Source: a virus. Taken from it: 64,000 bases of DNA. Within the stretch, counting starts at the first letter, position 1, and each line of letters begins with the position of its first letter. Shown here in pieces: positions 14,019 to 34,867 of this stretch. The position numbers and the translations under genes are program-made. The notes beneath the pieces are model-generated. The model was not told the origin of the DNA, did not search any database, and worked only from the letters and a program-made list of their open reading frames with translations. The stretch lies in IMG/VR virus record IMGVR_UViG_3300049893_001204, positions 13,679 to 77,678 of that record. One strand, given 5' to 3'.

Positions 14019-14043
14019 TGTCAAGCTGGACGTTAAACGTAGC
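14019..14043 (+). ncRNA. Motif B copy 1 (divergent pseudoknot)
   Basis: TGTC aa GCTG GACG TTAAAC g TAGC. Confidence 0.5.
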
Positions 14044-14068
14044 AGACAACTTGGCGGTCGTTCACGAT

Positions 14069-14102
14069 CTTGGCAGCTGCAATTCCGCAGTGTAAGTCCA
14101 AG
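14069..14102 (+). ncRNA. Motif A copy 1
   Basis: CTTGG CAG CTGC aattcc GCAG TGTAAGT CCAAG. Confidence 0.65.
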
Positions 14103-14312
14103 CTCACCAGGAGAACATTGTGGACTACACCGTTAACATCATCGAGCTTGACAACAACTACTTCCTTCAGGAAGTTTTTGCTGTCACTGAGTTCCAGTAC
14201 GTGGAACAGGTGACTGCAGGGCCGTTTCAGGCTCGATGGCAAGCAGACGTGCAACGTTCTGTTGCTTACCCCGCTTATCGGGGATTAACAGATGAGCATT
14301 GCCGTCTGCAAC

Positions 14313-14392
14313 ACTGAGCTGTAGTACTGCACATCTGTGCAGGGCCAGGTGCAACTCCTGGCCTCAGTTATTGCCTCCAGCGGAGATAGGCA
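14313..14392 (+). ncRNA. Motif D copy 1
   Basis: ACTGAG..GCCAGG TGCAACT CCTGGC CTCAGT TATTGCC hairpin. Confidence 0.55.
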
Positions 14393-14414
14393 CCGCACAC
14401 ACACGGAGAAACCC

Positions 14415-14660
14415 GTGAGCAACCGCGACCAGCACCACCTTGCTCCGCTCAACGGAGACGGCAACCTCCCAACCAGGGAAGAAGCCGGCGAGTACGTCTT
14501 TAACCAGTGCAAGCACTGGATGGAAGAAGGTCACTCGCAGGTGTTAACCCGCGACCAAGGTCTTCAGATTGCCTGCTGGGCATTGAAGATCGCAGGAGCT
14601 CAAGAGCTTCTGACACACGTTATTGCAGAGCTTGTTGAGCTTCCCGATAACTACTGCTGA
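14415..14660 (+). CDS. Hypothetical early protein
   Basis: GTG start downstream of motif D and GGAGA; the ORF-track start at 14337 falls inside the motif. Confidence 0.55.
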   Translation: MSNRDQHHLAPLNGDGNLPTREEAGEYVFNQCKHWMEEGHSQVLTRDQGLQIACWALKIAGAQELLTHVIAELVELPDNYC

Positions 14661-14725
14661 TCCGTAACCAAGCGGGTGGGCAGGTGCAAACCCTGCCCCA
14701 GTTATTGCCACCCACTGAGGGTGGC
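14656..14725 (+). ncRNA. Motif D copy 2
   Basis: GCTG..GGGCAGG TGCAAAC CCTGCCC CAGT TATT GCCACCC actga GGGTGGC. Confidence 0.55.
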
Positions 14726-14949
14726 CTAGCTCAAGTCAATGTCCATGATCAAGAACTGTTTCGTTGTTGTCTTCAACGGCAACGTTGTTGGTATGCATGC
14801 AACTGAGGAGGCAGCTGCTCAGCAAGTATTACAGTTAGCTGAGGAGTGGCAACTTCATGCCGACTGCGGAGCCGAAGTGCCAAAACCAGTATTGGTTGCA
14901 ATGTCTTTCAATGAATGGATGCAGCACGAAAGTGTTGTTGTATTCTGAT

Positions 14950-15003
14950 TTCTGCATCAAGCCCTGAGTAATCAGGGTTTCTTGCAGGACTCAACATCCT
15001 GTA
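14950..15003 (+). ncRNA. Motif C copy 2
   Basis: TTCTGCA..CCCTGA GTAA TCAGGG..TGCAGGA ctcaaca TCCTGTA. Confidence 0.7.
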
Positions 15004-15414
15004 TCCCACACCTCAAGTCAGTTCATGACTGCACTCAACATTCGTAAGAACATTGGCGGTCTGCTCCATGCTACTGCATCAGCAGTGGAGCAGATCAAGG
15101 TACCTACCAAGCAGCAGCTTAATGAGAAGGTAGATGAGTACCGCATTCGTGCGGCTGCACTCATCATGCCTAATGATGCTGCATTTGTTATTCCTGGAGC
15201 TAAGAAGTGAAGAACGATTTTACTGGAGCAGTAGTTGCCATTGCTATTGGCAACGGACTAGGCTTTCTTCTGTCCATTGCTGGACAGAAGATGATCAACA
15301 AGCATCAGATAGCTGTATGTCCGAGCAAACCTAATCATTCACTTGTGATGGTTAGGAGTGTAGTTGGTGACAGCTACTACTGCATTGCTGATAAGTACTT
15401 AGACAAGCACTGAC

Positions 15415-15468
15415 GTTTGCACATTCCCTTGTGGTAACACAAGGGTTTCTGCAGACCTCACGTCTGCA
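15415..15468 (+). ncRNA. Motif C copy 3
   Basis: GTTTGCA..CCCTTGTG GTAA CACAAGGG..TGCAGAC ctcac GTCTGCA. Confidence 0.7.
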
Positions 15469-15748
15469 CCAATTCAACTCAACCCAACTAGGACTATGTC
15501 TCCTGCAAGTGTTGAATATCTGTTGACCCAAGATGCCAGGTTGCTGGCACGCAGGGATTCAACGCCTGCCCATCCTGCTATCGATGCAGAGATTGAGGAC
15601 TGCCGTCAGGCAGCACTTGATCTTTACTTCAAGTGGCAAGATGGGACAGCACAGTTCCAGGAACTTACACCCTTTGTGGTGATCTTGGAGCGCAAGGTTG
15701 AATTAAACCGTGCACTCATCAAGTGGTTGAAGAACCACGAGGATTGAT

Positions 15749-15813
15749 TCCTGTACTTAACCCTACCTATTCCATGTGATAGGTGGGTTTTCTACAGGAC
15801 TTAACATCCTGTA
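15749..15813 (+). ncRNA. Motif C copy 4
   Basis: TCCTGTA..hairpin..TACAGGA cttaaca TCCTGTA. Confidence 0.7.
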
Positions 15814-15839
15814 CACCACAGCACAACTCAGCACTAAAC

Positions 15840-16238
15840 ATGACTGAAGCCATCAAGAAGTATGCAGACTTCCAGCAAGTCGTCTTTCACGGACGCATTG
15901 CATACATGGAAGCTGTCAACTATGACGGCAAAGAATTTCTTGCTGTTACGTTGATGCACACGTTGTCTGAGACAACGGATCTACGGATTCGTTTTACGAA
16001 TGGCAACGGTCTTTTAACTGCCTACCGCAACGGTAATCTTGTGGTTGGTCAGGAGCTTACCATCAGTGGTAACATCAAGGGCATCCGTGCTTTCTACATG
16101 AAAGAGGATGAGCTTGTGCCACTGAAGCATCCTGAGCTACAGGTCCGTTGCATGGGTTATGTCTTTGGTTCCAAGCCAGAGCAGAAACCTGAGGCAGTAG
16201 CAACAGCTGTGCCAACGCTGGAAGAAATTCCATTCTGA
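15840..16238 (+). CDS. SSB-like OB-fold protein (early)
   Basis: VVFHGRI...VGQELTISGNI beta pattern and acidic-aromatic C-terminus EEIPF; start reassigned downstream of motif C. Confidence 0.6.
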   Translation: MTEAIKKYADFQQVVFHGRIAYMEAVNYDGKEFLAVTLMHTLSETTDLRIRFTNGNGLLTAYRNGNLVVGQELTISGNIKGIRAFYMKEDELVPLKHPELQVRCMGYVFGSKPEQKPEAVATAVPTLEEIPF

Positions 16239-16239
16239 T

Positions 16240-16302
16240 TTCTGCACTAAACCCTGCCCATCGTTAGATGGGTGGGTTTTCTGCAGGACTCAACATCCTG
16301 CA
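16240..16302 (+). ncRNA. Motif C copy 5
   Basis: TTCTGCA..hairpin..TGCAGGA ctcaaca TCCTGCA. Confidence 0.7.
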
Positions 16303-16773
16303 AACAGTCTACCCAACATCTCAACACATGCGATTATCAATTGATCAACATGATATCGACGAAGCTTGTGCTGAGTTCGGTATTTCTCAAAGCGACTATT
16401 ACATAACGTGCACATCCAGTGCAATATATATGCACTGGGTAGCAACACCAGAGCAAATCAAGAAGTATTTTGAAACTGGACATTGTTGTTTATGCATAGA
16501 TATAGGAGGTGAATGGATAATATCTGATGAGGTAGAAGATTACAGAATGCCTAATCGTTTAACTGCATGCCGTTACATTCTTGATGCTTGATATGAAACA
16601 CATAGTTTCACTAGGCAACAACCGCTATGTACACCTCGATTCTTATGGTGAGTCTTCTAAGACTCGAGCCGTAAGTCAGGTGATGGTTGTTGCCTTTGCA
16701 CTTGTCATTGCCTGCATTACAGTGCCTGCACTGGTAGGCATTGACATTACCAACATCAACTCAACACAGAACC

Positions 16774-17124
16774 ATGACAACATTAAGCGTTAACACTGCA
16801 CTAATTGAAGAACGTCTGCAGCAGCTTATTACTGCACTCATCAAACAGTTTGATGAATACAGCAGACGAAACTATGGACATCCAAGTGATACTCATTACT
16901 TGTCCTTTGAGATTGTCAAAGGTACCAAGTATTACAAGCTCATTATGAGGCAAGGTACTGGTACATCGGTGCATGCATTTATCAGTCGTCAGACTGGTGC
17001 CATGTACAAACCAGCTAGCTGGAAAGCACCTGCCAAGCACGTCCGGTACAATCTGCTGGATGACACATCATTTGCTGAGTGTCTACGCAGAGCTGACTGG
17101 GCTGGTGGGTATCTATACCTATGA
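16774..17124 (+). CDS. Conserved phage hypothetical protein
   Basis: KYYKL...SVHAFI...TGAMYKPASWKAPAKHVRYNL signature, recalled from cyanophage proteins. Confidence 0.65.
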   Translation: MTTLSVNTALIEERLQQLITALIKQFDEYSRRNYGHPSDTHYLSFEIVKGTKYYKLIMRQGTGTSVHAFISRQTGAMYKPASWKAPAKHVRYNLLDDTSFAECLRRADWAGGYLYL

Positions 17125-17173
17125 GCTTTATCAGTATTCCAGGTAACTAACGTTTACCAGGAATCCAACTAAC

Positions 17174-17213
17174 TGCTGGGCATCCATGGATATACATGGT
17201 GTAAGTCCCAGCA
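17174..17213 (+). ncRNA. Motif A copy 2
   Basis: TGCTGGG CAT CCATG gatata CATGG TGTAAGT CCCAGCA. Confidence 0.75.
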
Positions 17214-17229
17214 AATCACAACTCCTCCT

Positions 17230-17607
17230 ATGAAGGGACGCATTTCAATCCTCAAAGAAGATCGCATCTGGCAGCTGAGAACACAAGGTTATTGCTATGA
17301 CACAATCGCACAGATTGTCAATTGCAAACCTGGTTCAGTTCCAGCTGCACTTAAACGTACAAGACAACGTCCACCACTGGCACAAGATCCAGTAAAACGT
17401 GGACGTGTACGTGGCTTTCTATCTGATGATCAGATCTCTGACATCAGAAAACGCAAAGCACTAGGTGAAACATTACATTCCATTGCAGGTGACTATCACA
17501 TTGAGATATCATCTGTGTGGAATATTGTAACCTACAACTCTTACAAGGAACCATCAGGTGATTCTGGTTACCCATTCAAGTTTGGTAACCGCCTGATGCA
17601 TGGTTAA
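17230..17607 (+). CDS. Tandem HTH DNA-binding protein
   Basis: GYCYDTIAQIVNC and GETLHSIAGDYHIEISSVWNIV helix-turn-helix patterns. Confidence 0.6.
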   Translation: MKGRISILKEDRIWQLRTQGYCYDTIAQIVNCKPGSVPAALKRTRQRPPLAQDPVKRGRVRGFLSDDQISDIRKRKALGETLHSIAGDYHIEISSVWNIVTYNSYKEPSGDSGYPFKFGNRLMHG

Positions 17608-17608
17608 T

Positions 17609-17640
17609 ACCTGGGCATCCTTATGGTGTAAGTCCCAGGT
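17609..17640 (+). ncRNA. Motif A copy 3
   Basis: ACCTGGG CAT CC ttat GG TGTAAGT CCCAGGT. Confidence 0.75.
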
Positions 17641-17887
17641 TGTTTACAACTCACACAAGTTTACTGCAATGGACTCAAATCAATTTGAAAATGACATTCC
17701 TTCTGATGCATTAGATGCATTAGCTGATCTTGCCTATGAGCAAGAAGAAGCAATGAGGGAAGAACTTAACCAACCGGAGGTTTATGATGACCAAACATGA
17801 CTACACCTTTGAGCAGGCATGGGATGATGGCGACATCATCATCATTCTGCTCACAATCATTTCACTTATCATCACGGAAATTGGATC

Positions 17888-19204: not shown

Positions 19205-19271
19205 TATTAGCAACAACTACGTGAGCCAGATCATCCGCATAGCTGGCTGCGTATACTGGGCATGATCTAAC

Positions 19272-19322
19272 ACTTAGGCATTCACATTATCACACTAGTG
19301 TTATGTGATGTAAGTCCTAAGT
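19272..19322 (+). ncRNA. Motif A copy 4
   Basis: ACTTAGG CAT TCACAT..ATGTGA TGTAAGT CCTAAGT. Confidence 0.7.
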
Positions 19323-19710: not shown

Positions 19711-19740
19711 CCTGGGCATCCGTAAGGTGTAAGTCCCAGG
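19711..19740 (+). ncRNA. Motif A copy 5
   Basis: CCTGGG CAT CC gtaa GG TGTAAGT CCCAGG. Confidence 0.75.
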
Positions 19741-21705: not shown

Positions 21706-21736
21706 ACGTCCTAGGTCATGACGTTAAACTGACCTA
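21706..21736 (+). ncRNA. Motif B copy 2
   Basis: ACGTC c TAGGTCA t GACGT TAAAC TGACCTA. Confidence 0.75.
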
Positions 21737-21762
21737 CACTACAAACTCAATCCACACCAACC

Positions 21763-23511
21763 ATGCAATTCCGTCTGCCTGACAATCTGCAAACTGAGCT
21801 GCTTGCTTATGACCCAAGCCTTAAGACATTGGCTAAGCAACAGAAAGCTGCTGCTTCAGCAACTAAGAAGACAACACATCCACTTGGTAACCCATATGAT
21901 TTAATCCCAGTGGATATTGTATCTAAAGATACACTTGCTACTGCAATTGAACGTATTAATCGCATGGCTGCTAAGTTTCGTTATTATGTGTTTAATAGGT
22001 TTGAAACAATTGATAACCAACCTATACAGATTACTTATGCCATTATCTATTACTACGCACAATGTTGGTATGCAGCATGGCTTCCACCTGCTGACCAACG
22101 TGATAAGTATGTATATGGTTATCGATATGCATTCAAGAATACTGAGGCTGCACGCAAAGCTATGTCGCATGCAGTAAAAGGTAAGATAGATCAACATCAA
22201 GAAATTAAGTATGGTCGCTCAACCTTTTACATTTATGGTGAGACGGTTACCTTAGAGCAGATCAAGACAACACCATCAAACGAACTGCAATACGGATGGA
22301 ACCTAGCTGGTGTGCCAACGTATTACCAAAAGTCTGGTGAGATGCGACGCGCTTGTATCAATGAATTCTACAAGTCATTGTCATTGTTTATACCTACGTG
22401 GCAAGATAGCCGTGAAATCTTTGAGCGTGTTCGTAATCAACATTGCATTGCATCATTGTTGATTAGTTATTCAGACCTTAACATTTCCTATTGGGATACA
22501 GTTGACAAGAATACTTGGGTACCATCACATGAATCATTGCTTAACTTGATTGACTACAATGTAATCTATGCAGAAAACCTGGGTTATAGCAGAGGCTATG
22601 AGTATAAAAGATTACACAAGATCAAGCACATTATTAATACACCATTCTTTAAGAAATGGATAGAAGAACAATGTGCATTAGTTATGACGCGTATTAACGA
22701 TAGTTCAATTACAGATTCAAAGCTAGTTGCTGCGCCATGGAAAACAATCATTGCTTTGTTGACTGCAATATATGGCATTCATAGTGTATGGGATGACTGT
22801 CCTATTGATTACTATCAATCACATATGTCTGCATTGATTGCTAGTGGTAATTGTTTTTCATACGCAAGTAACCTAGTTCAGAAGTGGTTGAAAGATAACA
22901 TGCCTGTTGCATCATTCTTTAAGATAGTTGAGAAGTCATACGTTAAAGAATTAGCAGGCAATATGTATTTTGATAGAGATATTCAACATCACACGTATCG
23001 TTTGCATGAATGGCGTGACACTATGAACATGCTAACTAATATACTTAACAAGCAAGATACATTTGATCCGCCTAGCCGCTGGCGTATTGAAGAGTTCCAT
23101 GACCATGTGCAATCAACTGCATGGAAACTAAACAATGAGAACCAATCATTACCACAAGATTTGTTTCCAACACCAATTAAGATTTCACTTGGTGAATCAA
23201 CATGGACATTCTTCCAGCCCATTGATACACATCAACTTGCAGCTTGGGGCCAGGCCGTACGTAACTGCGTTGGCTCTGCATCAGGCTATGCAGAAGGTGT
23301 ACGCAAGAAGAAACATTTCATTGTACTGTGCATGATTGATAACAAGCCTGTGTTTACCATCCAGCTAGATGTCAACAATGGCGTCATGAATGTTAATCAA
23401 ATTAAGGGGGTATCCAACACATCACTTAAACCTGAACAACAAGAATTGTATACAACTGCATTCAGTCAGGCATTGAAAGCCAGGGATGCTGAGCTAGCAT
23501 CTAAGAGCTGA
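21763..23511 (+). CDS. PcfJ-like domain protein
   Basis: C-terminal FHD...WGQAVRNCVGS..YA...FTIQL...NQIKGVSN pattern. Confidence 0.7.
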   Translation: MQFRLPDNLQTELLAYDPSLKTLAKQQKAAASATKKTTHPLGNPYDLIPVDIVSKDTLATAIERINRMAAKFRYYVFNRFETIDNQPIQITYAIIYYYAQCWYAAWLPPADQRDKYVYGYRYAFKNTEAARKAMSHAVKGKIDQHQEIKYGRSTFYIYGETVTLEQIKTTPSNELQYGWNLAGVPTYYQKSGEMRRACINEFYKSLSLFIPTWQDSREIFERVRNQHCIASLLISYSDLNISYWDTVDKNTWVPSHESLLNLIDYNVIYAENLGYSRGYEYKRLHKIKHIINTPFFKKWIEEQCALVMTRINDSSITDSKLVAAPWKTIIALLTAIYGIHSVWDDCPIDYYQSHMSALIASGNCFSYASNLVQKWLKDNMPVASFFKIVEKSYVKELAGNMYFDRDIQHHTYRLHEWRDTMNMLTNILNKQDTFDPPSRWRIEEFHDHVQSTAWKLNNENQSLPQDLFPTPIKISLGESTWTFFQPIDTHQLAAWGQAVRNCVGSASGYAEGVRKKKHFIVLCMIDNKPVFTIQLDVNNGVMNVNQIKGVSNTSLKPEQQELYTTAFSQALKARDAELASKS

Positions 23512-23766
23512 AGCCACAGCAAGGCCATCGTATGCTTGGCATAGGTGGCCTTTTCTTTCATGCCTGACTACACTGATGAACAGCTGCTTGCCATGGCAAT
23601 GGCAAACATTGGTGAATACATTCATGATCACTCACCACACTATGTACTGATTGAAGATCCTCGTAATGAGGATGACTATGATACATGGGATTATGGTACT
23701 GAGCCATTACCTCATGATCACACTTGGCATTCAACTGCAATCACAGTTGATGTAAGTCCAAGTGAT

Positions 23767-23841
23767 GCCGGCGTAGCCCAATCGGAAGAAGGCAAGTGAC
23801 TTAAAATCACTCAAGTACGAGTTCGAATCTCGTCGCCGGCA
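23767..23841 (+). tRNA. tRNA-Leu (anticodon TAA)
   Basis: GCCGGCG/CGCCGGC acceptor, AGTGA-CTTAAAA-TCACT anticodon arm, ACGAG-TTCGAAT-CTCGT T arm, A discriminator. Confidence 0.85.
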
Positions 23842-23853
23842 GTCTTTCTTTTT

Positions 23854-24360: not shown

Positions 24361-24363
24361 ACA

Positions 24364-24786: not shown

Positions 24787-24803
24787 ACACTTGAACTGCT
24801 GAC

Positions 24804-26459: not shown

Positions 26460-27155
26460 ATGATCATGAATGTCAAGTTGATCTGGGTAACCCCCAACGC
26501 AGAGGAGCTAATTACTTATATGGCACGTGTCAGTGCCCCAAAAAATCAGGAGAATATGGAGACTGCTCCTAAGTTGTTGCGTTATTTAATTCAACATAAG
26601 CATTGGTCTCCTTATGAGATGGCTAACATGTGTGTTGAAATTAACACAACCCGTGCAATATCTGCACAGATTATTAGACATCGCTCATTTAGTTTCCAGG
26701 AGTTTAGTGCTCGCTATGCAGATGTCAGTGAACTAGGTTCTGCTGTCATCCCACACTTGCGTAGACAAGATCATAAGAACAGACAAAATAGTATTGATGA
26801 TTTAGATACAGAGATGGTTGGTAGTTATTACCGACGTATCAGTCAACTTTTTGAGGATGCTGAACATCTCTATCGTGAGATGATAAGCACTGGTGTTGCT
26901 AAAGAGTGCGCCAGGAACATTCTGCCAATGGCAGCTCAGACTAGAATCTATATGCAAGGATCCTTGCGGTCATGGATCCATTACTTACAGCTACGTTGTG
27001 ACAACGGAACTCAAGCAGAACACCGACAAATTGCAGAAGAAATCAAACGAATCTTCTGTCAACAATTCCCAGTCACTGGAGAAGTTGCCTTCTCAGGAGA
27101 AGACAACACAACGCAACCACCTGAGGAACAACGCATTAGTCGTTTGTTTTTCTAA
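26460..27155 (+). CDS. thyX: FAD-dependent thymidylate synthase
   Basis: HWSPYE, QIIRHRSFSFQEFSARY signature, KECARNILP. Confidence 0.95.
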   Translation: MIMNVKLIWVTPNAEELITYMARVSAPKNQENMETAPKLLRYLIQHKHWSPYEMANMCVEINTTRAISAQIIRHRSFSFQEFSARYADVSELGSAVIPHLRRQDHKNRQNSIDDLDTEMVGSYYRRISQLFEDAEHLYREMISTGVAKECARNILPMAAQTRIYMQGSLRSWIHYLQLRCDNGTQAEHRQIAEEIKRIFCQQFPVTGEVAFSGEDNTTQPPEEQRISRLFF

Positions 27156-27280
27156 GAGGGTGTGACCTCACGGTGATCAAGCCGCAAGGTCATTCGTTTA
27201 CTAGCCAGGGGAAGCAGCAGAAACCCTGACTCCCTCGGGACTGACGCTGCTCTTCTGCGTCCCACAACAGTCTACTTGAC

Positions 27281-27307
27281 ACGTCCTAAGCATGACGTTA
27301 AACTGCT
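27281..27307 (+). ncRNA. Motif B copy 3
   Basis: ACGTC cta AGCA t GACGT TAAAC TGCT. Confidence 0.7.
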
Positions 27308-27330
27308 CCACACCAACTCACTACAACATC

Positions 27331-28119
27331 ATGAAACTTCTTAAGTTTTCTACTGGGAACGGCAAGCTCAAGAATCGTTTGATCTTTTCGTTGCCAGCGG
27401 GTTATGCATGCCCACATGCTGGTGTATGCAAGACCTTTGCAGATCGTGTCACAGGTAACATTACTGACTTACCTCAGCACACTGGTACTACAGCGGATGA
27501 GTTCCGCTGCTTTGCTGCAATGGCAGAGACTAGGCCAACCGTACGTGATGCACGTTGGCATAACTGGGATCTGCTGCGTAATACCATCCATCTCAATGGC
27601 AATCAGTCAATGCTGATGCGTGATCTGATTGACATGTCGTTGTTGATGGAACCAGAGAAGGAACTTGTACGCATCCATGAGAGTGGTGACTTCTGGATTG
27701 AAACCTACATGCGTGCATGGGCAATGGTTGCAGCACAGCGACCTAAGCAGAAGTTCTATGCCTATACCAAGTCTCTTGGCATGTGGTTGAACTTACGTGA
27801 TCAGCTGCCATCTAACTTCTATCTCACTGCATCTTACGGTGGTACGCTTGACTATCTCTTGCCAAAGTATCCAGATGTGTTCAAGCGTATTGCTTATGTG
27901 GTATACACAGAAGATGAAGCTAAAGAGCGTGGTCTAGAGATTGACCATGACGACAGCCATTGCTTTGGCAACAAGCCGTTTGCACTCCTTGTGCATGGCA
28001 GCCAACGCGCTGGATCAGACGCCATGAAAGCTTTGTCTCAACGTAAGAAAGACAAGGGATTCGTTGGGTACGGTAAAACATTCCAAAAAGAATCCGTACC
28101 TATTAACGTCTTTGCTTAG
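27331..28119 (+). CDS. Gp88-like protein
   Basis: GNGKL...FSLPAGYACP...C...CFA, RIHESGDF, FYAYTKS. Confidence 0.7.
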   Translation: MKLLKFSTGNGKLKNRLIFSLPAGYACPHAGVCKTFADRVTGNITDLPQHTGTTADEFRCFAAMAETRPTVRDARWHNWDLLRNTIHLNGNQSMLMRDLIDMSLLMEPEKELVRIHESGDFWIETYMRAWAMVAAQRPKQKFYAYTKSLGMWLNLRDQLPSNFYLTASYGGTLDYLLPKYPDVFKRIAYVVYTEDEAKERGLEIDHDDSHCFGNKPFALLVHGSQRAGSDAMKALSQRKKDKGFVGYGKTFQKESVPINVFA

Positions 28120-28288
28120 ACCCGCTACTATCAGTTAGTTATACCTAACTGATTAATGGCTTATCTGCTGGCATGTTGGAAGTCTGGTACACCATATGGT
28201 GTCCGGGCTTCCACTGATTCTTTTGAGTTGATTCCGTTAGACTCGGAAACAGCATTAGGAAAAGTCTTTAGTCATCCGTATCGCTCAG

Positions 28289-30184
28289 GTGCACAAAAGA
28301 TTTTGTCCTGGATCCAGCAGAATGATCATGTCCTCAATCGTGAAGAACTCTCAATTCAAGATTGCGCCAGGTTCCAGCGATGAACGTTGGCTCATCTTTG
28401 ATTTGGAATCGGATGGGTTGTATGACGTTGTATCCGTTATCCATTGCATTGTCATCTATGACATTGGAGCCAACCAAACTTTTACTTATGGGCCTGATTG
28501 CATTGCTATTGCTCTTGATCATTTGGCAACCGCTGATGTTTTGATAGGGCACAACATCATCTTTTATGATCTGCCTGTTCTGCAAAAGTTGCATTCATTT
28601 GTCTGCAAAAGTCGGATTGTAGACACACTTATTTGCACTCGATTGATCTGGCCTAAGGAGGTACTCTATGACCTTGACACAGAACAATATCCGCAGGTTC
28701 CAGAAAAGAACCGTGGATCCGCATCACTTAAGGCTTGGGGATGGCGCTTGGCCAATCACAAGATCGACTTCAAAGACTTCAGTGAATACAGCCAAGAGAT
28801 GTTGGACTACTGTGTCCAGGATGTTGTTGTCACCCTTAGCCTTTGGCAATTCATTGTCAAACAAAACTATCCGCAAGCAGCTTACAAACTTGAACACGAC
28901 TTTGCTATTGCCATTAACAAACAAATTAGAGCAGGCATTCCTTTTGACGTTGATGCATCTCTTGATCTTGTGGATGGTCTTAGAACAAAACAAAAAGAAC
29001 TCGAAGTTCATTTAAAAAAAATCTTTCCACCTATCAAACATGAGACTACCTTTATCCCCAAGGTTAACAACTCCACGAAGGGTTACGTTAAAGGCCAAGC
29101 TTTTACTAAAGTACATTGGGAGGAATTTAATCCTGGCTCTCGTGAGCAGATTGTACAAAGGCTACAAGCAAAGTACGGATGGACCCCTGAAACAACTACG
29201 GAGAAAGGTAATCCAATTCTTAATGACGATATACTTGCGGCACTTCCATATCCCGAGGCAATTCAGTTATCCGAATACATGTTGGTTAAGAAGCGTCTTG
29301 GCCAAATAGCAGATGGTCGTAACGCATGGCTCAAGCTTGTTAACAATGACACTGGTCGTATGCATGGTGATCTAGTAACCAATGGTTGCATCACAGGTCG
29401 TTGTGCTCACCGCAACCCAAACATGGGTCAAGTACCAGCAAGCTATTCACCTTATGGTCATGAGTGCCGTAGTTTGTTCCATGCCCCGCAAGGTTGGGAT
29501 CTTATTGGTATTGATGCCAAAGCATTGGAGCTGCGTTGTTTAGCTGGTTATCTTGCCCTCTGGGATGATGGTGAGTATGCATCAATGGTTATTAATCCAG
29601 AAGTAGATATCCATAGCTATAACCAAGAGCAATTTGGTGTAGCAACCAGGGACATAAGCAAACGTCTTTTATATGGGCTTCTATACGGGTGTGGTGCAAT
29701 TAAAGCAGGTACTATCATCAATGCAGAAGAGAAAGATCCTGAGGTACTTGCAACTTTAGGGCGTAATGCTATCGATGGTTTTATGCGTGGTGTACCAGCA
29801 CTGAAAAAGCTTAAACAAAAGATTGAAGAGACTATTGGAACTCGTGGTTATCTTATTGGTCTTGATGGTCGCACTCTACATTGTCGTTCCGCTTTTAAAG
29901 GATTGAATGTTTTGTTGCAATCCAGTGGTGCAATCATCATGAAACAAGTTGTAATTAATATGCACAACAACATTGAACAAAACCTGGCTTTACCACATGG
30001 TCAGGAGTGGGAACAAATGCTTATGATCCATGACGAAGTCCAGTTGGCATGCAAGCCTGAGCACACAGAACACATCCGTGAACAAGCATTGCAAGCCTTC
30101 CCCCAAGCAGGTGCGTTCTTTGGATTTAAATGTACAATTGAAGGCGACTCCCGCGTTGGCAAGACGTGGGCTGATACACATTAA
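28289..30184 (+). CDS. polA: Family A DNA polymerase (T7-like) with 3'-5' exonuclease
   Basis: ExoI FDLESDG, ExoIII YCVQDV, motif A DAKALELR, motif B KRLLYGLLYG, motif C IHDE; true start probably nearer 28322. Confidence 0.95.
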   Translation: MHKRFCPGSSRMIMSSIVKNSQFKIAPGSSDERWLIFDLESDGLYDVVSVIHCIVIYDIGANQTFTYGPDCIAIALDHLATADVLIGHNIIFYDLPVLQKLHSFVCKSRIVDTLICTRLIWPKEVLYDLDTEQYPQVPEKNRGSASLKAWGWRLANHKIDFKDFSEYSQEMLDYCVQDVVVTLSLWQFIVKQNYPQAAYKLEHDFAIAINKQIRAGIPFDVDASLDLVDGLRTKQKELEVHLKKIFPPIKHETTFIPKVNNSTKGYVKGQAFTKVHWEEFNPGSREQIVQRLQAKYGWTPETTTEKGNPILNDDILAALPYPEAIQLSEYMLVKKRLGQIADGRNAWLKLVNNDTGRMHGDLVTNGCITGRCAHRNPNMGQVPASYSPYGHECRSLFHAPQGWDLIGIDAKALELRCLAGYLALWDDGEYASMVINPEVDIHSYNQEQFGVATRDISKRLLYGLLYGCGAIKAGTIINAEEKDPEVLATLGRNAIDGFMRGVPALKKLKQKIEETIGTRGYLIGLDGRTLHCRSAFKGLNVLLQSSGAIIMKQVVINMHNNIEQNLALPHGQEWEQMLMIHDEVQLACKPEHTEHIREQALQAFPQAGAFFGFKCTIEGDSRVGKTWADTH

Positions 30185-30347
30185 CCATGTACTTACTTGT
30201 AAAATTACTTAACGAATTACTTACTCTTGGTGTTTATTCAACATTGATTAAATGTGCATTTGACTTTACTTGGTATCAAGGATTTGCTCTTGGTTATTTG
30301 TTTTGGATTTTACGTGATGCCTGTAAAAATCCCAACAAATGATTATT

Positions 30348-30374
30348 CGTCCCAGGTATGACGTTAAACTGCCT
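30348..30374 (+). ncRNA. Motif B copy 4
   Basis: CGTC cc AGGTA t GACG TTAAAC TGCCT. Confidence 0.7.
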
Positions 30375-30395
30375 TAACACCTTGCATCTGTACTC

Positions 30396-31211
30396 ATGAA
30401 CTTTGCTTCTGTCTGCGCTCAAACTAACGAAACTCCACGGGAAGTATTTATTAGTGCAACAGCTACAGCTATCCGCTGTTCGGTAACATTGCCTCCTGTT
30501 GGCAAGAAAGCTCCTACTGTACTTGAACTCAATGTATATGGAAAAAACGCAGAGCGTTTTGTCCAAGCACCCAAAGGATCCCTCATCTACATTCACGGCG
30601 CCAAGCTACGTCACGATCTTGACACCAAAACGTTTTTGTTACATGGAGGAATTATTGCTCCGGTTACGGAACAATTCCCGATCTTTAATACAATCATCTT
30701 GAGTGGTCGTTGTATTAAAGACATTGACCACGATGACGCACGTGCATTTCGTACAACACCAGATGGTTTGATGATTTGCAATCAAACACTATCTGTTAGC
30801 ACTGGTCGCAATCAAGCTGATCTCTTCAACTTCTTTGCGATGAACAATGCACAGGACAAACTTAACAATGCCGAATTGTTAGTTAACTTCACACGCAAGG
30901 GAACTGGTCTAACCATTAACGGTCGCCTTGTAACAGATACATGGATTGACCGTGAAACAAAAGAAAAGAAATCTCAGACCAAGATCCAGCTGGTTAATAT
31001 GACCCTGGCTCCCAAGGGATCTGTTGAACCGCAGCCAATTACACCGCAAACCACCGTTGCCTCTACTGAGAATGTTGCCACGCTTTGGGGTGGCCGCACT
31101 GCTGACGAAACTCCTGATCCCTGGAACAAAGCCTCAGGTGGTGGTCTGCCTGATCTCCCTGGACACTATGGCCCTGCTCCAACTGAAATCGATGAAGAGG
31201 TTCCGTTCTGA
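30396..31211 (+). CDS. ssb: Single-stranded DNA-binding protein with tandem OB folds
   Basis: NTIILSGR...RKGTGLTINGRLVTDTWIDRETKEKKSQTKI; C-terminal DEEVPF. Confidence 0.75.
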   Translation: MNFASVCAQTNETPREVFISATATAIRCSVTLPPVGKKAPTVLELNVYGKNAERFVQAPKGSLIYIHGAKLRHDLDTKTFLLHGGIIAPVTEQFPIFNTIILSGRCIKDIDHDDARAFRTTPDGLMICNQTLSVSTGRNQADLFNFFAMNNAQDKLNNAELLVNFTRKGTGLTINGRLVTDTWIDRETKEKKSQTKIQLVNMTLAPKGSVEPQPITPQTTVASTENVATLWGGRTADETPDPWNKASGGGLPDLPGHYGPAPTEIDEEVPF

Positions 31212-31536
31212 TGTCTGATCACACTCCTGTCAAGCCACTGAAAAGTGAGTTTTGTTTTCTACATGAAGACTCAGATGGTACTGAAACCATTGTTAAGTTT
31301 GACCAGGTTTTTACCGACAAGATCATTGAGAACTTCATTCAGTTCTTAAGGGGTTGCGGTCACCATGACATTTGTATTTACACTGCATTGCAATTTTTTG
31401 CAGAAGAATACTTTCAATCCATGGAGTCTATGGATCTTGTAGAGATCCATGAAGATAACAAAGAAATGTTAAAAGACCTTAGAAAGAAAAAGAAGAAGGG
31501 AGTTAAGCAAGAAGCTGATGACTTAAACTGATGGCC

Positions 31537-31564
31537 CGTCCTGGGATGACGTTAAACTCATCCA
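31537..31564 (+). ncRNA. Motif B copy 5
   Basis: CGTC c TGGGA t GACG TTAAAC TCATCCA (stem 2 imperfect). Confidence 0.6.
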
Positions 31565-31585
31565 CTAACCCACTCGGAACTGACC

Positions 31586-32689
31586 ATGACTTCAACTCCG
31601 ATTGACATCTTGAGTGATTCCTGGATGGATGAAATCCAACCTGAAACAACTTCTGCACCACTCCCTGCTTCTACCAACAAAATGACCATGAAGAAAACCT
31701 CTTCCCTTGCCAAGCGTGACATTGCTTCTTTCCAAATTTTCCAATCTAAGGAATTTGTTTCTGGGTACCAGAACCTCGTCACAATTCAACCTCTTAACAA
31801 GTCCAAGACACGAGGTTGGTTCGTGCGGAAGTCAGACCTGGACACTTGCGGATGGAGTGCCACTGAAAGTGACTTTGCTACAGGTTCAGTTATCTGGAAC
31901 TACAAGCAAACTTTTGGCATGGCTCCCAACACTTCAGTGGAAGAAGGACTCAATTTTACTGAGCCTCGTATTCAAATCCTTCTACGTTCTCCCCTCATGG
32001 TTGAGGAAACCACAGGGATGAGGCAAACGATTGGTACGTTTGATAACCCTGAGGTTAAGGAATTGTTTGAAGCCGATAAGGTTGCATCTGATCTTGCCGG
32101 CAGCAAAGGTGAGCTGTACAAGCGCAAGTACAGTGTGCGGACCAAATACCTGATCTACCTGCTGACCAAAGACAACAAGCGTGCCCATAATATTCCTATG
32201 GTGCTGACGCTGAAAGGTCTTAATGGTACAGATGTATCTGATAAGGTACGTATCTATGAGCGTGAGATGTCTAAGTGTCTGAGCAAAGCTCTGGATACTG
32301 AGATTCCTCTGAGCTTCAATGAGAAGTTCTATGCCACTACAGTGTTCTCTCCTGTGTTGGCTAATGAGATGCGTGGTGCTAACAACGTAGAGATCTGCGC
32401 TGTTGAATCATTTGACATTCCTGATTACAGCACACAAGAAGATGCGATTGAATCTTTGAATCGTTTGTCGATTCCAGATGAAGATCGTGAATCAACTTGG
32501 AAGTACCAGGAACTGTTCTTTGATTACATCAACATCCATGCCAAGCAGGATGCACAGAAACTGGGTGGTGCCTATGGTATGAAAGATGGTGTAGAAGTAT
32601 TGCCTGCTTCTCGTACCACAGATGCCATTGAGGTTAAGGCATTGCCTTCTCGTAACCCCATCACTGGTGAGGATTCTGATCTGAGCTAA
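31586..32689 (+). CDS. DUF5895-like protein, possible DNA recombination/annealing role
   Basis: GWFV...GW, PRIQILLRSPL, YLIYLL..DNK..H.IPMVLTLKG resemble a cyanobacterial family (from recall). Confidence 0.5.
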   Translation: MTSTPIDILSDSWMDEIQPETTSAPLPASTNKMTMKKTSSLAKRDIASFQIFQSKEFVSGYQNLVTIQPLNKSKTRGWFVRKSDLDTCGWSATESDFATGSVIWNYKQTFGMAPNTSVEEGLNFTEPRIQILLRSPLMVEETTGMRQTIGTFDNPEVKELFEADKVASDLAGSKGELYKRKYSVRTKYLIYLLTKDNKRAHNIPMVLTLKGLNGTDVSDKVRIYEREMSKCLSKALDTEIPLSFNEKFYATTVFSPVLANEMRGANNVEICAVESFDIPDYSTQEDAIESLNRLSIPDEDRESTWKYQELFFDYINIHAKQDAQKLGGAYGMKDGVEVLPASRTTDAIEVKALPSRNPITGEDSDLS

Positions 32690-32954
32690 CACTAACAGAA
32701 GGATTAGCTAGGTCATTCGGATTGATAATCACTTGATTAAAGATCCGAATGTCCTTTACTAAACCTTTAATAATTCCTTGACGTTGAGTGGCAATCCTCG
32801 CCAAGAGGGTTGCCATCTCTTTTAGTTCACTAACGGAATTACATTCAGCAATGGAGCGTTTGATCTTTTCTTCCCAGAACTTATCATCAATTGATGGTTC
32901 AATTTCAAACGCATGCAATGGAGTGTACTCAAGTTCTTGTGTAGATTCTTCCAT
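32661..32954 (-). CDS. Hypothetical protein
   Basis: 97-aa ORF, lone minus-strand gene with upstream TAGAAT. Confidence 0.5.
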   Translation of the reverse strand: MEESTQELEYTPLHAFEIEPSIDDKFWEEKIKRSIAECNSVSELKEMATLLARIATQRQGIIKGLVKDIRIFNQVIINPNDLANPSVSVSSDQNPHQ

Positions 32955-33246
32955 TGTTTATGTAATTGTTAGTGACATTCTACTCAAAAACAATCAGAGA
33001 TTCAAAATGAAACCTGAAGAAAAAGCTGCATTACAGACAGGTGCCATTGCTGCTGGGCTAGGAAGCCTAGTAGCTCTGGTCGTAAGCAGCCCCATTACCT
33101 GGGGTGTGCTGGCCTACGGCACCTATCGAATCAGTCGTCAGGCGTACCAGCGGACCAAGTACCGTGGTAAGCTGAAGCCTATCCCTGAGGAAGACACCTG
33201 GGGGATCTGATTCCAACTCAACTCAAACCACAACACACTATTAGCC

Positions 33247-34188
33247 ATGACAACTGCTCAACTTACAGAACTCAATGAAGGTCAGAAACTTATCTACACA
33301 CGCACGAATATTGGCCGTGCGTTCCATGGGTTTGATGACACCGAAATTGCTGGCATTTATTTGCGAGATGATGATTGTTGCGTGGTGCGCCGCGATGGTA
33401 GCCAGCAGACTTACAACAGGGAACTGATAAGAAAAGCTTATATATGCCACAAGGGTAGGCTTAAGGATTTCTTTTCATATTTAGGTCCTAACTATAGGGG
33501 TCCTAGCATATGGCGTAACAACGCCTATGTTCTTTTCAAAGGATGGAACTATGTCCATGCACTCGGACACACAACACCCAACGCAAAGTTACAAAACCAC
33601 TGGGCAGACAAATTTATACACCTATCAGATCAACACAAACTCACAACCCTCCTTCAATCTGACCAAACAGACCTGGGGCATCTGGTTGCGCCGGACGGGT
33701 TGCGGTCTACAGATCGGCCCATTGATCTGGACTCTGAGTTGGTGGAAGACGAGAGTACCCTTCCGACATGTGAACCTTGGTGTTCATGCGGGTCCTTTCA
33801 GCGTCAGCTCCACAATCTTCCTCTGCTCAGACAAGAAGCAGAAGGAATCATGCCCTGGTGCATCCACCTGAGTTGGTTTATTAAGTACAGGCAACTGCTA
33901 TGCAAGCGCACAGAGGTACGTAATGCAGCACCATCTGGTACACCAGATAAATGCGTGGCTTGGTTTTATGCTCCACCGGTAGATGCAACCAGTGACGGTA
34001 AGTTTGTATTGCTGCATACCAAGCATGGGTCACAGGCACCGCTAACACACTGGCGTACCTACAAGAAAGATGAAGTCTTTACGCAAGCTGATGCATGGGC
34101 TTTGTTTGACAGTATGCTAGATGCTGGTTATGTGCCATACCCTGGCACTTCTTTGCCACAACTTAAGACTGCACTCAAGAAACAATGA
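33247..34188 (+). CDS. SWIM zinc-finger-containing protein
   Basis: WCSCGSF...WCIHL (CxC...CxH). Confidence 0.6.
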   Translation: MTTAQLTELNEGQKLIYTRTNIGRAFHGFDDTEIAGIYLRDDDCCVVRRDGSQQTYNRELIRKAYICHKGRLKDFFSYLGPNYRGPSIWRNNAYVLFKGWNYVHALGHTTPNAKLQNHWADKFIHLSDQHKLTTLLQSDQTDLGHLVAPDGLRSTDRPIDLDSELVEDESTLPTCEPWCSCGSFQRQLHNLPLLRQEAEGIMPWCIHLSWFIKYRQLLCKRTEVRNAAPSGTPDKCVAWFYAPPVDATSDGKFVLLHTKHGSQAPLTHWRTYKKDEVFTQADAWALFDSMLDAGYVPYPGTSLPQLKTALKKQ

Positions 34189-34838
34189 CACCAACCCAAC
34201 GTTATGATCTGGACATTCCAGAAGACACCCATTGGGCACTTGTTAAGTTAGCTGCAGAACTTAAGATGCATCATGAAGACTATGCACAAAACATTCTGAT
34301 TGGTCATGTCGAACACGAATTGGATCGACAAGCTGCAGCTAACAACGATTGAAGAACCTGATGGGTCTTTGACAATTCAGATTGACTGGGATCCAGAAGA
34401 TCCGGAGTTAGCTCTTTGGACTTCATGGGGTGAGGAAAAACAAAAACAACTTTTCCTCGATGCTTTAACCAAAACTCTTGACAAGGAAATTGACAATGAC
34501 TATTGATCAGTATGGCTTGAATGATCCAGAGTATACCAAGCTGTTCCTTAAGAATGCAGATCAACTAATTGATCTGTACTATAGGTTTAGCAATAAGCTA
34601 ACGGCTGGTTACCAAATGGGTGTGCCAGAGGATGTTAAGCGTCAGCTCTTTGATGATGTTGTTTACAGAACCAATGACTGCGCTCGTGAGAAACATAAAG
34701 AAGAACATCCTGAAAGCATTGAACTATATGTAAGTAATACAGAGTTGAAGAAAGAGATTGATTCTCTTAAAACAATTCTTCTTAATTTAGTTGAAGTATT
34801 GATTGCAGCCGAAGAAAATAAACCGATGGAATAATAGT

Positions 34839-34867
34839 GCGTCCTGGTCATGACGTTAAACTGACCA
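34839..34867 (+). ncRNA. Motif B copy 6
   Basis: GCGTC c TGGTCA t GACGT TAAAC TGACCA. Confidence 0.75.

Follow-up and report, generated by a model that had tools for sequence, protein, structure and literature searches.

A compact pseudoknot between phage genes shares its invariant core with the coremin Xrn1-resistant RNA

Five intergenic elements in a lake cyanophage (77.7-kb genome, distantly related to Synechococcus phage S-EIV1) are RNA signals, not DNA signals. Each is a 26–30-nt H-type RNA pseudoknot, and the conserved letters of the knot, CGUC-C...A-U-GACG-UUAAAC-U, are those of coremin, an Xrn1-resistant RNA known from RNA viruses of plants, fungi and insects. Because the core is shared with a plant-virus RNA that halts an RNA-degrading enzyme, shielding of the downstream message is probable. 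At roughly even confidence, we favor a reading in which the knot may act as a folded roadblock, keeping 5'-to-3' decay out of the cistron that follows.

Five knots and a covarying RNA fold

All positions refer to the window, the whole 64,000-nucleotide stretch that was analyzed. The exact decamer GACGTTAAAC occurs six times on the plus strand between 14 and 35 kb (2.55 expected with at most one mismatch), and the full layout, CGTCC-N4-6-ATGACGTTAAAC followed by the loop complement, is present in five copies. A covariance model trained on 80 copies from other contigs scored these five at 35–51 bits (E 1e-5 to 7e-9). The entire 77.7-kb genome contains no further copies. A first-pass annotation had listed six copies, of which five, all on the plus strand, hold up with the full arrangement and one, at 14019, retains the core decamer only. 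Its stem-2 pairings and loop lengths are correct for the five, as are its 21–26-nt distances to start codons, its gene names (PcfJ-like, GP88, SSB, DUF5895, 39-aa peptide then Gp157) and its description of the copy at 31537 as imperfect; three of its start coordinates were shifted by one.

21707..21736, +, pseudoknot copy 1 (47.4 bits): stem 1 CGUC 21707-10 / GACG 21720-23; loop 1 C 21711; stem 2 UAGGUCA 21712-18 / UGACCUA 21730-36; junction U 21719; loop 3 UUAAAC 21724-29; begins 5 nt after stop codon 21699-21701
21737-21762, +, copy 1 leader: 26 nt, without G, unstructured
21737..23511, +, PcfJ-like gene with leader: 582 aa, ATG 21763
27282..27307, +, pseudoknot copy 2 (46.9 bits): stem 1 CGUC/GACG; loop 1 CUA; stem 2 AGCA/UGCU (4 bp); thyX upstream across a 126-nt gap
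27276-27304, +, sigma-70-like TTGACA-17-TAAACT match, overlapped by copy 2 alone among the copies
27308..28119, +, GP88-family gene with leader (23 nt, without G): 262 aa, ATG 27331
28289-30184, +, DNA polymerase A, downstream of GP88 and a small ORF, with no additional knot
30348..30374, +, pseudoknot copy 3 (50.9 bits): stem 1 CGUC/GACG; loop 1 CC; stem 2 AGGUA/UGCCU, including one U-G pair; begins 5 nt after stop codon 30340-30342
30375..31211, +, SSB gene with 21-nt leader: 271 aa, ATG 30396
31537..31563, +, pseudoknot copy 4, variant register (35.1 bits): stem 1 CGUC/GACG; loop 1 CUG; stem 2 GGAU/AUCC (4 bp); junction nucleotide absent; loop 3 UUAAACUC; begins 5 nt after stop codon 31529-31531
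31564..32689, +, DUF5895 gene with 22-nt leader: 367 aa, ATG 31586
34840..34867, +, pseudoknot copy 5 (50.8 bits): stem 1 CGUC/GACG; loop 1 C; stem 2 UGGUCA/UGACCA (6 bp); junction U; loop 3 UUAAAC; begins 5 nt after stop codon 34832-34834
34868..35715, +, copy 5 leader (26 nt) and both following genes: 39-aa hydrophobic peptide gene 34894-35013, then Gp157-like gene 35017-35715
14019..14045, +, doubtful sixth site: GACGTTAAAC core at 14029-14038

The sixth site scores 10.5 bits (E = 2), matching the 10-nt core alone, and the core decamer on the minus strand at 63235 scores the same. It lacks the family-invariant loop C, junction U and U following AAAC, and has no gene start or start codon downstream; a weak alternative pairing (UGUC/GACG plus GCUG/UAGC) is possible.

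The layout consists of a 4-bp stem 1 (NGWC/GWCN), a loop-1 C, a stem 2 of 4–7 bp whose sequence is free, a junction U in most copies, and loop 3, UUAAAC, alongside stem 1. Viral contigs, prophages and GenBank phages together supply more than 150 copies, across which both stems covary. Stem 2 pairs at 93% in 80 copies with double-sided changes at four of six pairs, and no slid register of stem 2 in these copies approaches the true one. For stem 1, where hairpins were chosen irrespective of that stem, a changed 3' strand was fully matched by the 5' strand in 14 of 15 copies; variants include GGAC/GUCC, GGUC/GACC, UGUC/GACA, AGUC/GACU and AGAC/GUCU. The annotation was therefore right to describe a compact H-type pseudoknot with a covarying stem 2 and A-rich loop 3, and its structural claim is now much stronger because stem 1 covaries too. 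With 61 G-U pairs against 4 A-C mismatches, it is the sense strand that folds, and the covariation of both stems means that the whole element must be transcribed. Nested-fold energies were no better than those of shuffles (z 0 to -1.5), as expected for a pseudoknot. The motif was not found in Rfam or in the literature searched.

Placement and hosts

The knots occupy a fixed position between ribosome footprints. Four of the five copies begin 5 nt past a stop codon, and all five end 21–26 nt ahead of an ATG that lacks a Shine-Dalgarno (SD) sequence; the intervening leaders are unstructured (MFE 0 in four of five). Among 81 copies with an upstream ORF ending within 12 nt, the lower limit after the stop codon is a sharp 5 nt, and 36 copies lie at exactly this distance. 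The lower limit before the ATG is ~19 nt. These limits are the nearest spots that spare the knot from unwinding by terminating and initiating ribosomes. The cultured relative S-EIV1 carries six copies, with stem-1 variants UGUC/GACA and AGUC/GACU, ahead of the orthologous SSB, GP88, DUF5895, PcfJ and peptide genes. Genes for abundant proteins follow the knot: SSB here, and scaffold in Enterococcus, Ruminococcus, Peptostreptococcaceae and S. aureus phages.

Nearly all identifiable carrier hosts possess RNase J. A scan of 185,579 species genomes gave 21 matches, all with stem 2 intact; 5,426 E. coli genomes gave none. RNase J exceeded its curated cut-off in 16 of 18 carrier assemblies versus 8 of 14 control genomes, a skew confounded by phylogeny. 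The two exceptions are a 1.5-Mb bin that contains contigs of S-EIV1-like phages and a 'Bacteroidetes' bin, in which the knot contig has a strong GGAGG leader. Hosts of GenBank carrier phages are Staphylococcus, Lactobacillus, Streptococcus, Bacillus, Moorella, Mycobacterium, Arthrobacter, Paracoccus, Synechococcus, Microcystis and Nostoc. Cyanobacteria possess both RNase E and RNase J (PMC8682795, PMC7283877), and resistance to RNase J1 has been reported for structured xrRNAs (PMC7603331). One Vibrio phage lineage is a possible carrier (stem 1 UCUC/GAGA) and counts against the RNase J link; its BLAST match is weak (E = 0.7) and antisense to annotated small ORFs. Vibrios are not known to possess RNase J.

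A candidate roadblock and its rivals

Coremin is defined as GUCCGAAGACGUUAAACUAC, with hexaloop forms that obey YGNNAD (PMC6546385, PMC10520033). A single pattern scan retrieved the phage knot and, on contigs encoding RdRp or picorna-like capsids, hexaloop coremin (loop CGNNAU). In 47 phage copies outside the search pattern, the spacer shows 21 substitutions; every one of them is at U13, U14 or C18, and A15–A17 are unchanged. Coremin mutagenesis found U13U14 tolerant, with U14A and U13C occurring naturally, and A15, A16 and A17 each essential. Hence, the positions that vary in the phage knot are those that coremin tolerates.

The phage knot would represent a branch of the coremin exoribonuclease-resistant motif, folding within a polycistronic early/replication transcript to form a directional roadblock where the next cistron begins, at its 5' edge. 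Decay could enter through an upstream cut or 5' pyrophosphate removal; host RNase J, moving 5' to 3', would halt at the knot, and 5'-end-dependent tracking by RNase E may be halted too. The segment behind the knot would remain intact and translatable, namely PcfJ-like; GP88 to DNA polymerase; SSB; DUF5895 onward; and the peptide plus Gp157. The data show the fold, its origin from the sense strand, the core shared with coremin, the matching substitution pattern, the placement and the host range; the block to a bacterial nuclease and the resulting higher expression are what we infer. The annotation's suggestion of an RNase J-resistant 5' cap accordingly gains indirect backing: the invariant letters are identical to coremin's, the variable positions are tolerated there, and nearly all hosts have RNase J. 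Counting against a roadblock, the second hairpin that coremin requires is missing behind the phage knots. Moreover, classical frameshift pseudoknots of similar size fail to stall Xrn1 (PMC10321173), so an H-type knot alone is no guarantee of resistance.

It is conceivable, though unlikely, that the knot instead acts in translation, as the operator for a phage protein (an SSB autoregulon as in T4 gene 32), as a protein-independent standby site or enhancer for SD-less starts, or as an insulator that blocks post-termination ribosomes from the next cistron. In cyanophages, a fixed 19–28 nt does separate the knot from the ATG, the leader being CA-rich and unstructured, the knot adjoins the terminating ribosome 5 nt past the stop, ssb is among its targets, and coremin in vitro stalled scanning ribosomes and stimulated frameshifting. 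However, in Firmicute prophages and S. aureus phages the same knot lies 12–105 nt before SD-bearing scaffold genes with no ssb nearby, so neither the start distance nor the type of ribosome-binding site is conserved. The invariant letters are those of an RNA-virus element that works without a viral protein, and no conserved partner protein was found. The SSB-controlled regulon advanced by the annotation therefore finds no support: knots before scaffold genes, and a core present in eukaryotic RNA viruses, argue against any general SSB link.

Operon punctuation, in which a 3'-end structure guards the preceding cistron from 3'-to-5' exonucleases (assuming a cut within the leader) or marks endonuclease processing, is improbable. 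The knot does keep close to the upstream stop (5–11 nt in 80 of the 81 copies), directly follows a terminator-like hairpin in Enterococcus and Ruminococcus prophages, and at one locus (L108) is joined with tRNA-like modules, potential sites for RNase P or Z. Yet phages normally block 3' decay with GC-rich hairpins, which are stronger obstacles than a 4+6-bp knot, and the conserved A-rich loop 3 and loop-1 C are directional coremin-fold features that such a block would not need; known xrRNAs offer little resistance to passage from the 3' side (PMC7603331).

A recoding signal (a stimulator of -1 frameshifting or stop read-through) or a small-ligand riboswitch is highly improbable. Loop-1 C, junction U and A-rich loop 3 bring the topology near that of luteovirus frameshift knots, a 5-nt spacing from the A-site codon fits frameshift geometry, and the preQ1-I riboswitch is of similar size. 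Against this, none of the 81 upstream stops has a slippery heptamer, each of the three stop codons occurs, the median length to closure of the shifted frames is 21 and 6 codons, and downstream genes hold no consistent frame. Riboswitch families gave no matches at E up to 10, and stem 2 is fully Watson-Crick without ligand, with no sequestration of a start site or terminator visible.

A DNA promoter or operator, with TAAACT as the -10, CGTCC as an activator box 10–13 bp upstream and transcription starting downstream, is largely excluded: although TAAACT conforms to TAnnnT, a perfect TTGACA stands at 17 bp in copy 2 and the site carries a BPROM-predicted promoter annotation in S. aureus phage records, a -35-like hexamer accompanies only one of five copies, promoter-like sites in the region are not enriched (25 versus 31.9 in shuffles), box-to-hexamer spacing changes with stem-2 length, dsDNA recognition gives no account of two covarying stems with their G-U excess over A-C (61 to 4), and the same core occurs in RNA viruses without a DNA stage. 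The annotation had named such a promoter as grounds for rejecting its own reading of the motif.

Comparison with known elements

The putative roadblock shares with coremin, also named xrRNA-C (PMC6546385, PMC10520033), stem 1 (C)GUC/GAC(G), the C-G loop-closing pair, a loop that begins with C and ends with A-U, the spacer UUAAACU with variable U13/U14 and invariant AAA, and single or tandem copies in intergenic or untranslated RNA. It differs in its loop, enlarged to 7–9 nt with U rather than the required G as second letter, and 4–7 loop bases pair canonically with the sequence following UUAAAC (six Watson-Crick pairs), so that coremin's A20 and C21 give way to free stem-2 sequence. For Xrn1 resistance, coremin needs its second hairpin right after the spacer, where the phage knots have none. 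Coremin occurs in BNYVV, cucumoviruses and many other RNA viruses, whereas the phage knot is carried in the mRNA of dsDNA phages and prophages, and the relevant nuclease therefore cannot be Xrn1.

Watson-Crick coremin (xrRNA-WCC), selected in vitro and also present in Sanxia picorna-like virus 5, is Xrn1-resistant (PMC10321173). It too forms an H-type knot, in which the hairpin-1 loop pairs with the 3' part of the spacer as a canonical, antiparallel stem 2. Its stem 2, however, is 3 bp (nt 6–8 with 18–20), unlike the 4–7 bp from U19 in the phage knot; its loop is a tetraloop starting with G, and it still needs the hairpin 2 that the phage knot lacks.

Luteovirus knots (BWYV, PLRV) are likewise compact H-type folds of ~28 nt. 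They too have C in loop 1, leave the junction U unpaired and run an A-rich loop 3 along stem 1, but the phage knots follow stop codons rather than lying in overlapping frames, with a slippery site in 0 of 81. Luteovirus-type frameshift knots do not stall Xrn1. The T4 gene 32 element is a single-gene operator through which the phage SSB autorepresses translation. Both it and the present element are phage mRNA leader pseudoknots followed by an unstructured tract, and one copy here precedes ssb; however, the present knots number 5–6 per genome before unrelated genes, precede scaffold genes in other phages, and have no sequence similarity to the T4 knot.

The 5' mRNA stabilizers known from Gram-positive bacteria and phages that infect them (the ermC and aprE leaders, the cryIIIA STAB-SD and the phage SP82 stabilizer), like the T7 RNase III intercistronic sites, consist of simple hairpins, ribosome-binding sites or RNase III duplexes; although none is a conserved pseudoknot or has sequence in common with the phage knot, the proposed functional logic is the same. 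In such elements, the stability of the downstream polycistronic segment depends on an obstacle near the 5' end or on a processing signal.

Pseudoknots ahead of five cyanophage genes

The window covers bases 13679–77678 of a 77.7-kb source record that is 98% complete, and its sole nucleotide-level relative among GenBank phages is the cultured Synechococcus phage S-EIV1 (80.6% identity across 0.85 kb). The plus strand of the window has the decamer GACGTTAAAC six times, between 14 and 35 kb. At five sites we found a full arrangement, CGTCC followed by 4–6 variable bases, ATGACGTTAAAC, and the reverse complement of the variable bases. As RNA, this arrangement forms an H-type pseudoknot of 26–30 nt (hereafter, the knot), built of stem 1, a loop-1 C, stem 2, usually a junction U, and a loop 3 reading UUAAAC.

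Knot copies in the window, each with the full arrangement
21707–21736, plus strand: copy 1, preceding a PcfJ-like gene (ATG 21763)
27282–27307, plus strand: copy 2, preceding a GP88-family gene (ATG 27331)
30348–30374, plus strand: copy 3, preceding ssb (ATG 30396)
31537–31563, plus strand: copy 4, preceding a DUF5895 gene (ATG 31586)
34840–34867, plus strand: copy 5, preceding a 39-aa peptide gene (34894) and then a Gp157-like gene

All five copies share the stem 1 CGUC/GACG and score 35–51 bits against a covariance model trained on 80 copies from other contigs. The first-pass annotation had counted six copies; these five stand, whereas the one placed at 14019 falls away, since the 14029 site (+), like the minus-strand decamer at 63235, holds the 10-nt core alone (10.5 bits, E = 2). 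Scanning the whole genome for the structure, a search in which shuffles yield about one match, returned no sixth full copy. ThyX and family-A DNA polymerase genes in the same module are without a knot.

The two extra exact decamers, at 14029–14038 (+) and 63235–63244 (−), compare with an estimated 0.1 or so expected by chance. On the minus strand, the decamer comes with a hairpin resembling stem 2 (UGGGA/UCCUG) but with no stem 1, and both decamers may be decayed knot copies. Elsewhere in the window lie a tRNA-Leu(UAA) at 23766–23842 (+) and a tRNA-Thr and tRNA-Pro pair at 42498–42647 (−), the latter adjoined by a match to the Rfam abiF RNA at 43321–43357 (−; 52.2 bits against a gathering score of 37).

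Covariation across carriers defines the fold. A pattern scan of IMG/VR, with stem 1 fixed by the pattern, listed more than 116 loci. Among the matches listed, 82 copies have a 5-nt variable part, of which 53 pair at 6/6 positions of stem 2 and 20 at 5/6, where about 0.3% would match fully by chance. On an 80-sequence alignment drawn from the matches listed, pairing in stem 2 reaches 93%, 4 of 6 pairs show double-sided changes, and every slid register falls to 16–53% paired. Variants of stem 1 were sought among hairpins whose 11-nt loop ends in TTAAAC, picked regardless of stem 1; 15 copies had an altered 3′ strand, and 14 of these carried a fully matching 5′ strand (GGAC/GUCC, GGUC/GACC, UGUC/GACA, AGUC/GACU or AGAC/GUCU). 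By covariance model, S-EIV1 has six knot copies, upstream of orthologues of ssb, GP88, DUF5895, PcfJ-like and small peptide genes, with UGUC/GACA and AGUC/GACU in stem 1 where the window reads CGUC/GACG. A 48-row alignment has double-sided changes at 4/4 stem-1 pairs and 5/6 stem-2 pairs; its variant rows were chosen by a pairing filter, and the unbiased figure for stem 1 is the 14 of 15. The closing C-G of stem 1 is retained in 47 of the 48 rows, the other three pairs varying by compensation.

Overall, stem 2 is 91–93% paired, with double-sided changes at 4–5 of 6 pairs. G-U pairs outnumber A-C mismatches by 61 to 4, which makes the sense strand the one that folds. When only the pairing scheme was imposed and loop 3 left unconstrained, a scan gave 155 matches versus 13 in shuffles, and 147 of the 155 had a UUAAAC-like loop. 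When the five copies were folded as nested structures, z-scores came to 0.03 to −1.46, which are uninformative because ViennaRNA cannot model pseudoknots.

Placement between genes and range of carriers

The knot occupies a narrow position between cistrons. In the window, stem 2 ends 21–26 nt before the ATG at all five copies, and the knot begins exactly 5 nt past the stop codon of the preceding ORF in four of them, copy 2 following a 126-nt gap. The intervening leaders are without a Shine-Dalgarno (SD) sequence or secondary structure. Across loci, among the matches listed, the distance from the upstream stop to the knot has a sharp floor at 5 nt (36/81 at 5, 13/81 at 6, with a tail decaying to 11), and the distance from knot to ATG bottoms out near 19 nt, with its mode at 19–28. 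Set against established ribosome footprints, the floors would mark how close the knot can lie to a terminating or an initiating ribosome without having to be unwound by either. This match to footprint limits suggests that the knot must remain folded during translation of both neighboring genes.

Carriers extend well beyond cyanophages. Searching 185,579 species genomes with a stricter pattern gave 21 loci, each of which retains an intact stem 2; these are in Enterococcus, Ruminococcus, Peptostreptococcaceae, Selenomonadaceae, Fictibacillus, Anaeroplasmataceae, phytoplasma, Saccharibacteria, Anaerolineales, Bradymonadales, and a lake bin with S-EIV1-like phage contigs. RNase J scored above its curated cut-off in 16 of 18 carrier assemblies versus 8 of 14 control genomes. 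Of the two carriers below the cut-off, one is the S-EIV1-like phage bin, and the other is a 'Bacteroidetes' bin with a strong GGAGG leader on its contig. Cyanobacteria possess both RNase E and RNase J (PMC8682795, PMC7283877).

A capsid scaffold protein gene lies directly behind the knot in three Firmicute prophage lineages. In GenBank, 83 S. aureus phages, including phiNM4, phiETA, 80, 29, 52A, 88 and phiMR11, carry the knot between minor-head and scaffold genes with the stem 1 CGAC/GUCG. Other hosts of knot-bearing GenBank phages are Lactobacillus, Streptococcus, Bacillus, Moorella, Mycobacterium, Arthrobacter, Paracoccus, Microcystis and Nostoc. In one lineage of Vibrio phages a plausible copy, UCUC/GAGA, turned up at E = 0.7, antisense to annotated ORFs. 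A BLAST search of 5,426 E. coli genomes with a canonical copy, which detects only near-identical stem 2, found none.

Several carriers have a distinctive local context. In Staphylococcus phage B166 (1506–1542 of that locus, L144) and relatives, several S. aureus records annotate the minor-head/scaffold knot as a BPROM-predicted promoter (P5R); in B166, a stop codon lies 10 nt upstream and an SD-led scaffold start about 55 nt downstream. In prophages of Enterococcus (L122, L123, L142) and Ruminococcus (L125, L138), a terminator-like hairpin and T-run directly precede the knot, so the knot-bearing transcript must read through the hairpin, and 49–53 nt and an SD follow the knot before the scaffold gene. 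A Selenomonadaceae MAG (L129) has four knots in 4 kb (245–286, 2456–2497, 3846–3873 and 3961–4002); the flank GGTCTA before UGUCC, common to two of them, and an 'ttcatgag' recurring about 20 nt downstream suggest a repeated gene cassette. Another contig (L108, minus strand) holds one cassette twice, at about 640–900 and 1700–1960, in the order terminator-like hairpin, long phage-type knot, 8 nt, hexaloop coremin (loop CGAAAU; coremin, or xrRNA-C, is an Xrn1-resistant RNA of plant, fungal and insect RNA viruses), tRNA-like module, and SD-led gene. The tRNA-like module comprises an acceptor-like stem and the T arm GTGGGTTCGAATCCCAC. ARAGORN calls no tRNA at this contig, Rfam gives a partial tmRNA match nearby, and its ORFs matched no family in PHROGs.

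A possible roadblock to decay and its rivals

In the best-supported reading, to which we give an even chance, the knot is a directional roadblock shielding the downstream cistron from 5′-to-3′ decay, judging from its fold, folding strand, coremin core, constraints shared with coremin, placement and host range. The knot would stop RNase J, or RNase E tracking, and stopping decay there would in turn raise expression. Structured exoribonuclease-resistant RNAs (xrRNAs) have been reported to be RNase J1-resistant (PMC7603331). Among public RNA runs, a look-up for 26500–35500 listed no holder. Against a roadblock we count the missing second hairpin (hp2) that coremin requires, the replacement of a loop G by U, and the failure of ordinary frameshift knots to stall Xrn1 (PMC10321173). 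A stronger version, in which the knot is a true xrRNA of the bacterial world, the first class in DNA phages and prophages, and stops RNase J (perhaps also RNase E tracking) without hp2, we hold more tentatively, at somewhat under an even chance.

Among other readings, a translational operator, enhancer or insulator is unlikely in our judgment, and punctuation acting on the upstream cistron is more improbable still. A sigma-70-type promoter is largely excluded. Copy 2 is overlapped by a sigma-70-like match, TTGACA-17-TAAACT (10/12), at 27276–27304 (+) in the 126-nt gap after thyX, and some S. aureus phage records do call the knot site a promoter, but the −35-like hexamer is present at copy 2 only, and the strand-asymmetric G-U pairs and covariation point to RNA. 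We rejected the promoter reading for the other four copies, which are without such a hexamer at 16–18 bp. Transcription starting from the 27276–27304 match would begin inside stem 2 and yield a knot-less RNA. A recoding signal is likewise largely excluded: among the matches listed, 0 of 81 copies has a slippery heptamer (X XXY YYZ) 5–9 nt upstream, the −1 frame runs into a stop at a median of 21 codons, shifted frames are short, and all three stop codons are in use, leading us to reject both frameshifting and read-through. A riboswitch is also largely excluded, as Rfam (release 15) places no family at the copies, whether at gathering score in the window or at E up to 10 at four copy loci.

If the stronger version holds, phages of cyanobacteria, Firmicutes and actinobacteria would use the knot to split operons into separately protected messages. 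A widespread, compact xrRNA relative in DNA phages would mean that structural nuclease roadblocks shape bacterial mRNA decay too, would account for differing levels of neighbor genes in SD-less, tightly packed phage operons, and would offer synthetic biology a portable 28-nt stabilizer for RNase J hosts. One core of 16–17 nucleotides would then serve viruses of eukaryotes and bacteria alike, through descent, transfer, or convergence on one fold. Because the motif occurs in cultured S-EIV1, whose host is known, and in the standard S. aureus phages phiNM4, phiETA, 80, 29, 52A and 88, the system is testable now. The coremin papers make no mention of phages, prokaryotes or RNase J (PMC6546385, PMC10520033, PMC10321173), and literature searches pairing xrRNA with cyanophage, and exoribonuclease-resistant RNA with bacteriophage and RNase J, returned no report of the motif in phages. 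Within the literature searched, xrRNAs have so far been described solely in RNA viruses of eukaryotes.

Relation to coremin and its Watson-Crick variant

Coremin, GUCCGAAGACGUUAAACUAC, is an RNA motif that resists Xrn1 in beny- and cucumoviruses and in many further RNA viruses, and stalls a 5′-to-3′ exoribonuclease about 1 nt ahead of its hairpin 1 (PMC6546385, PMC10520033). That hairpin has a 3–5-bp stem, (C)GUC/GAC(G), in which pairing outweighs sequence and a pyrimidine-purine (C-G) pair closes the loop. The loop reads YGAD (tetraloop) or YGNNAD (hexaloop), with longer loops tolerated and hepta- and octaloops resistant in the BNYVV context (PMC6546385, PMC10520033). In the spacer, UUAAACUAC, A15–A17 (each of them individually), C18, U19 and A20 are essential; U13 and U14 are tolerant, such that U13U14-to-AA is accepted and U14A and U13C occur naturally. 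Hp2, directly 3′ of the spacer, is needed for Xrn1 resistance (PMC6546385, PMC10520033).

The phage knot has the stem 1 of coremin, its first loop letter C, its last two loop letters A-U, and UUAAACU, with UUAAAC-U present in all five window copies. Unlike coremin, it has an enlarged loop of 7–9 nt, of which 4–7 bases pair with sequence after UUAAAC; C first and A-U last are kept in 80 pattern-selected copies. The spacer appears to be constrained in much the same places: across 47 copies outside the original search pattern, all 21 substitutions fall at U13 (12), U14 (7) or C18 (2), and none at A15–A17. Position 20 is mostly G and position 21 is free in phage knots because both bases sit in stem 2. 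The second loop letter is U (or C) where coremin has G, and hp2 is absent, with 0–3 G in the window leaders (0 kcal/mol in 4/5) and 10% G in leaders across the family.

Among the matches listed, the IMG/VR pattern scan brought up a further, 'short' class, CGTCC-N3-ATGACGTTAAAC-TA with the loop CGNNAU, on contigs that encode a tombus-like RdRp, dicistrovirus-like capsids or an alphavirus-like methyltransferase, one of them with a luteovirus BTE. This class is ordinary hexaloop coremin in its known habitat, and one pattern thus joins the phage knot and the RNA-virus worlds. In two RNA-virus contigs, sub-threshold matches to the GIR1 branching ribozyme (E about 1e-5) begin at the hexaloop coremin (L015 1599–1756, −; L025 2269–2509, +); at 38–39 bits against a cut-off of 100, we treated them as noise.

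The authors of the coremin work proposed an H-type pseudoknot, and a Watson-Crick variant (xrRNA-WCC), whose stem 2 has 3 bp, was selected and is Xrn1-resistant (PMC10321173). The phage knot shares with xrRNA-WCC a canonical antiparallel stem 2 formed between the hairpin-1 loop and the 3′ part of the spacer, and differs from it in that stem 2 is longer, at 4–7 bp versus the published 3 bp, and shifted by one nucleotide. The phage knot thus resembles a naturally occurring, lengthened form of the selected Watson-Crick coremin. The 4–7-bp stem 2 of the knot would fix the pseudoknot register inferred in the coremin literature: the loop A pairs with U19.
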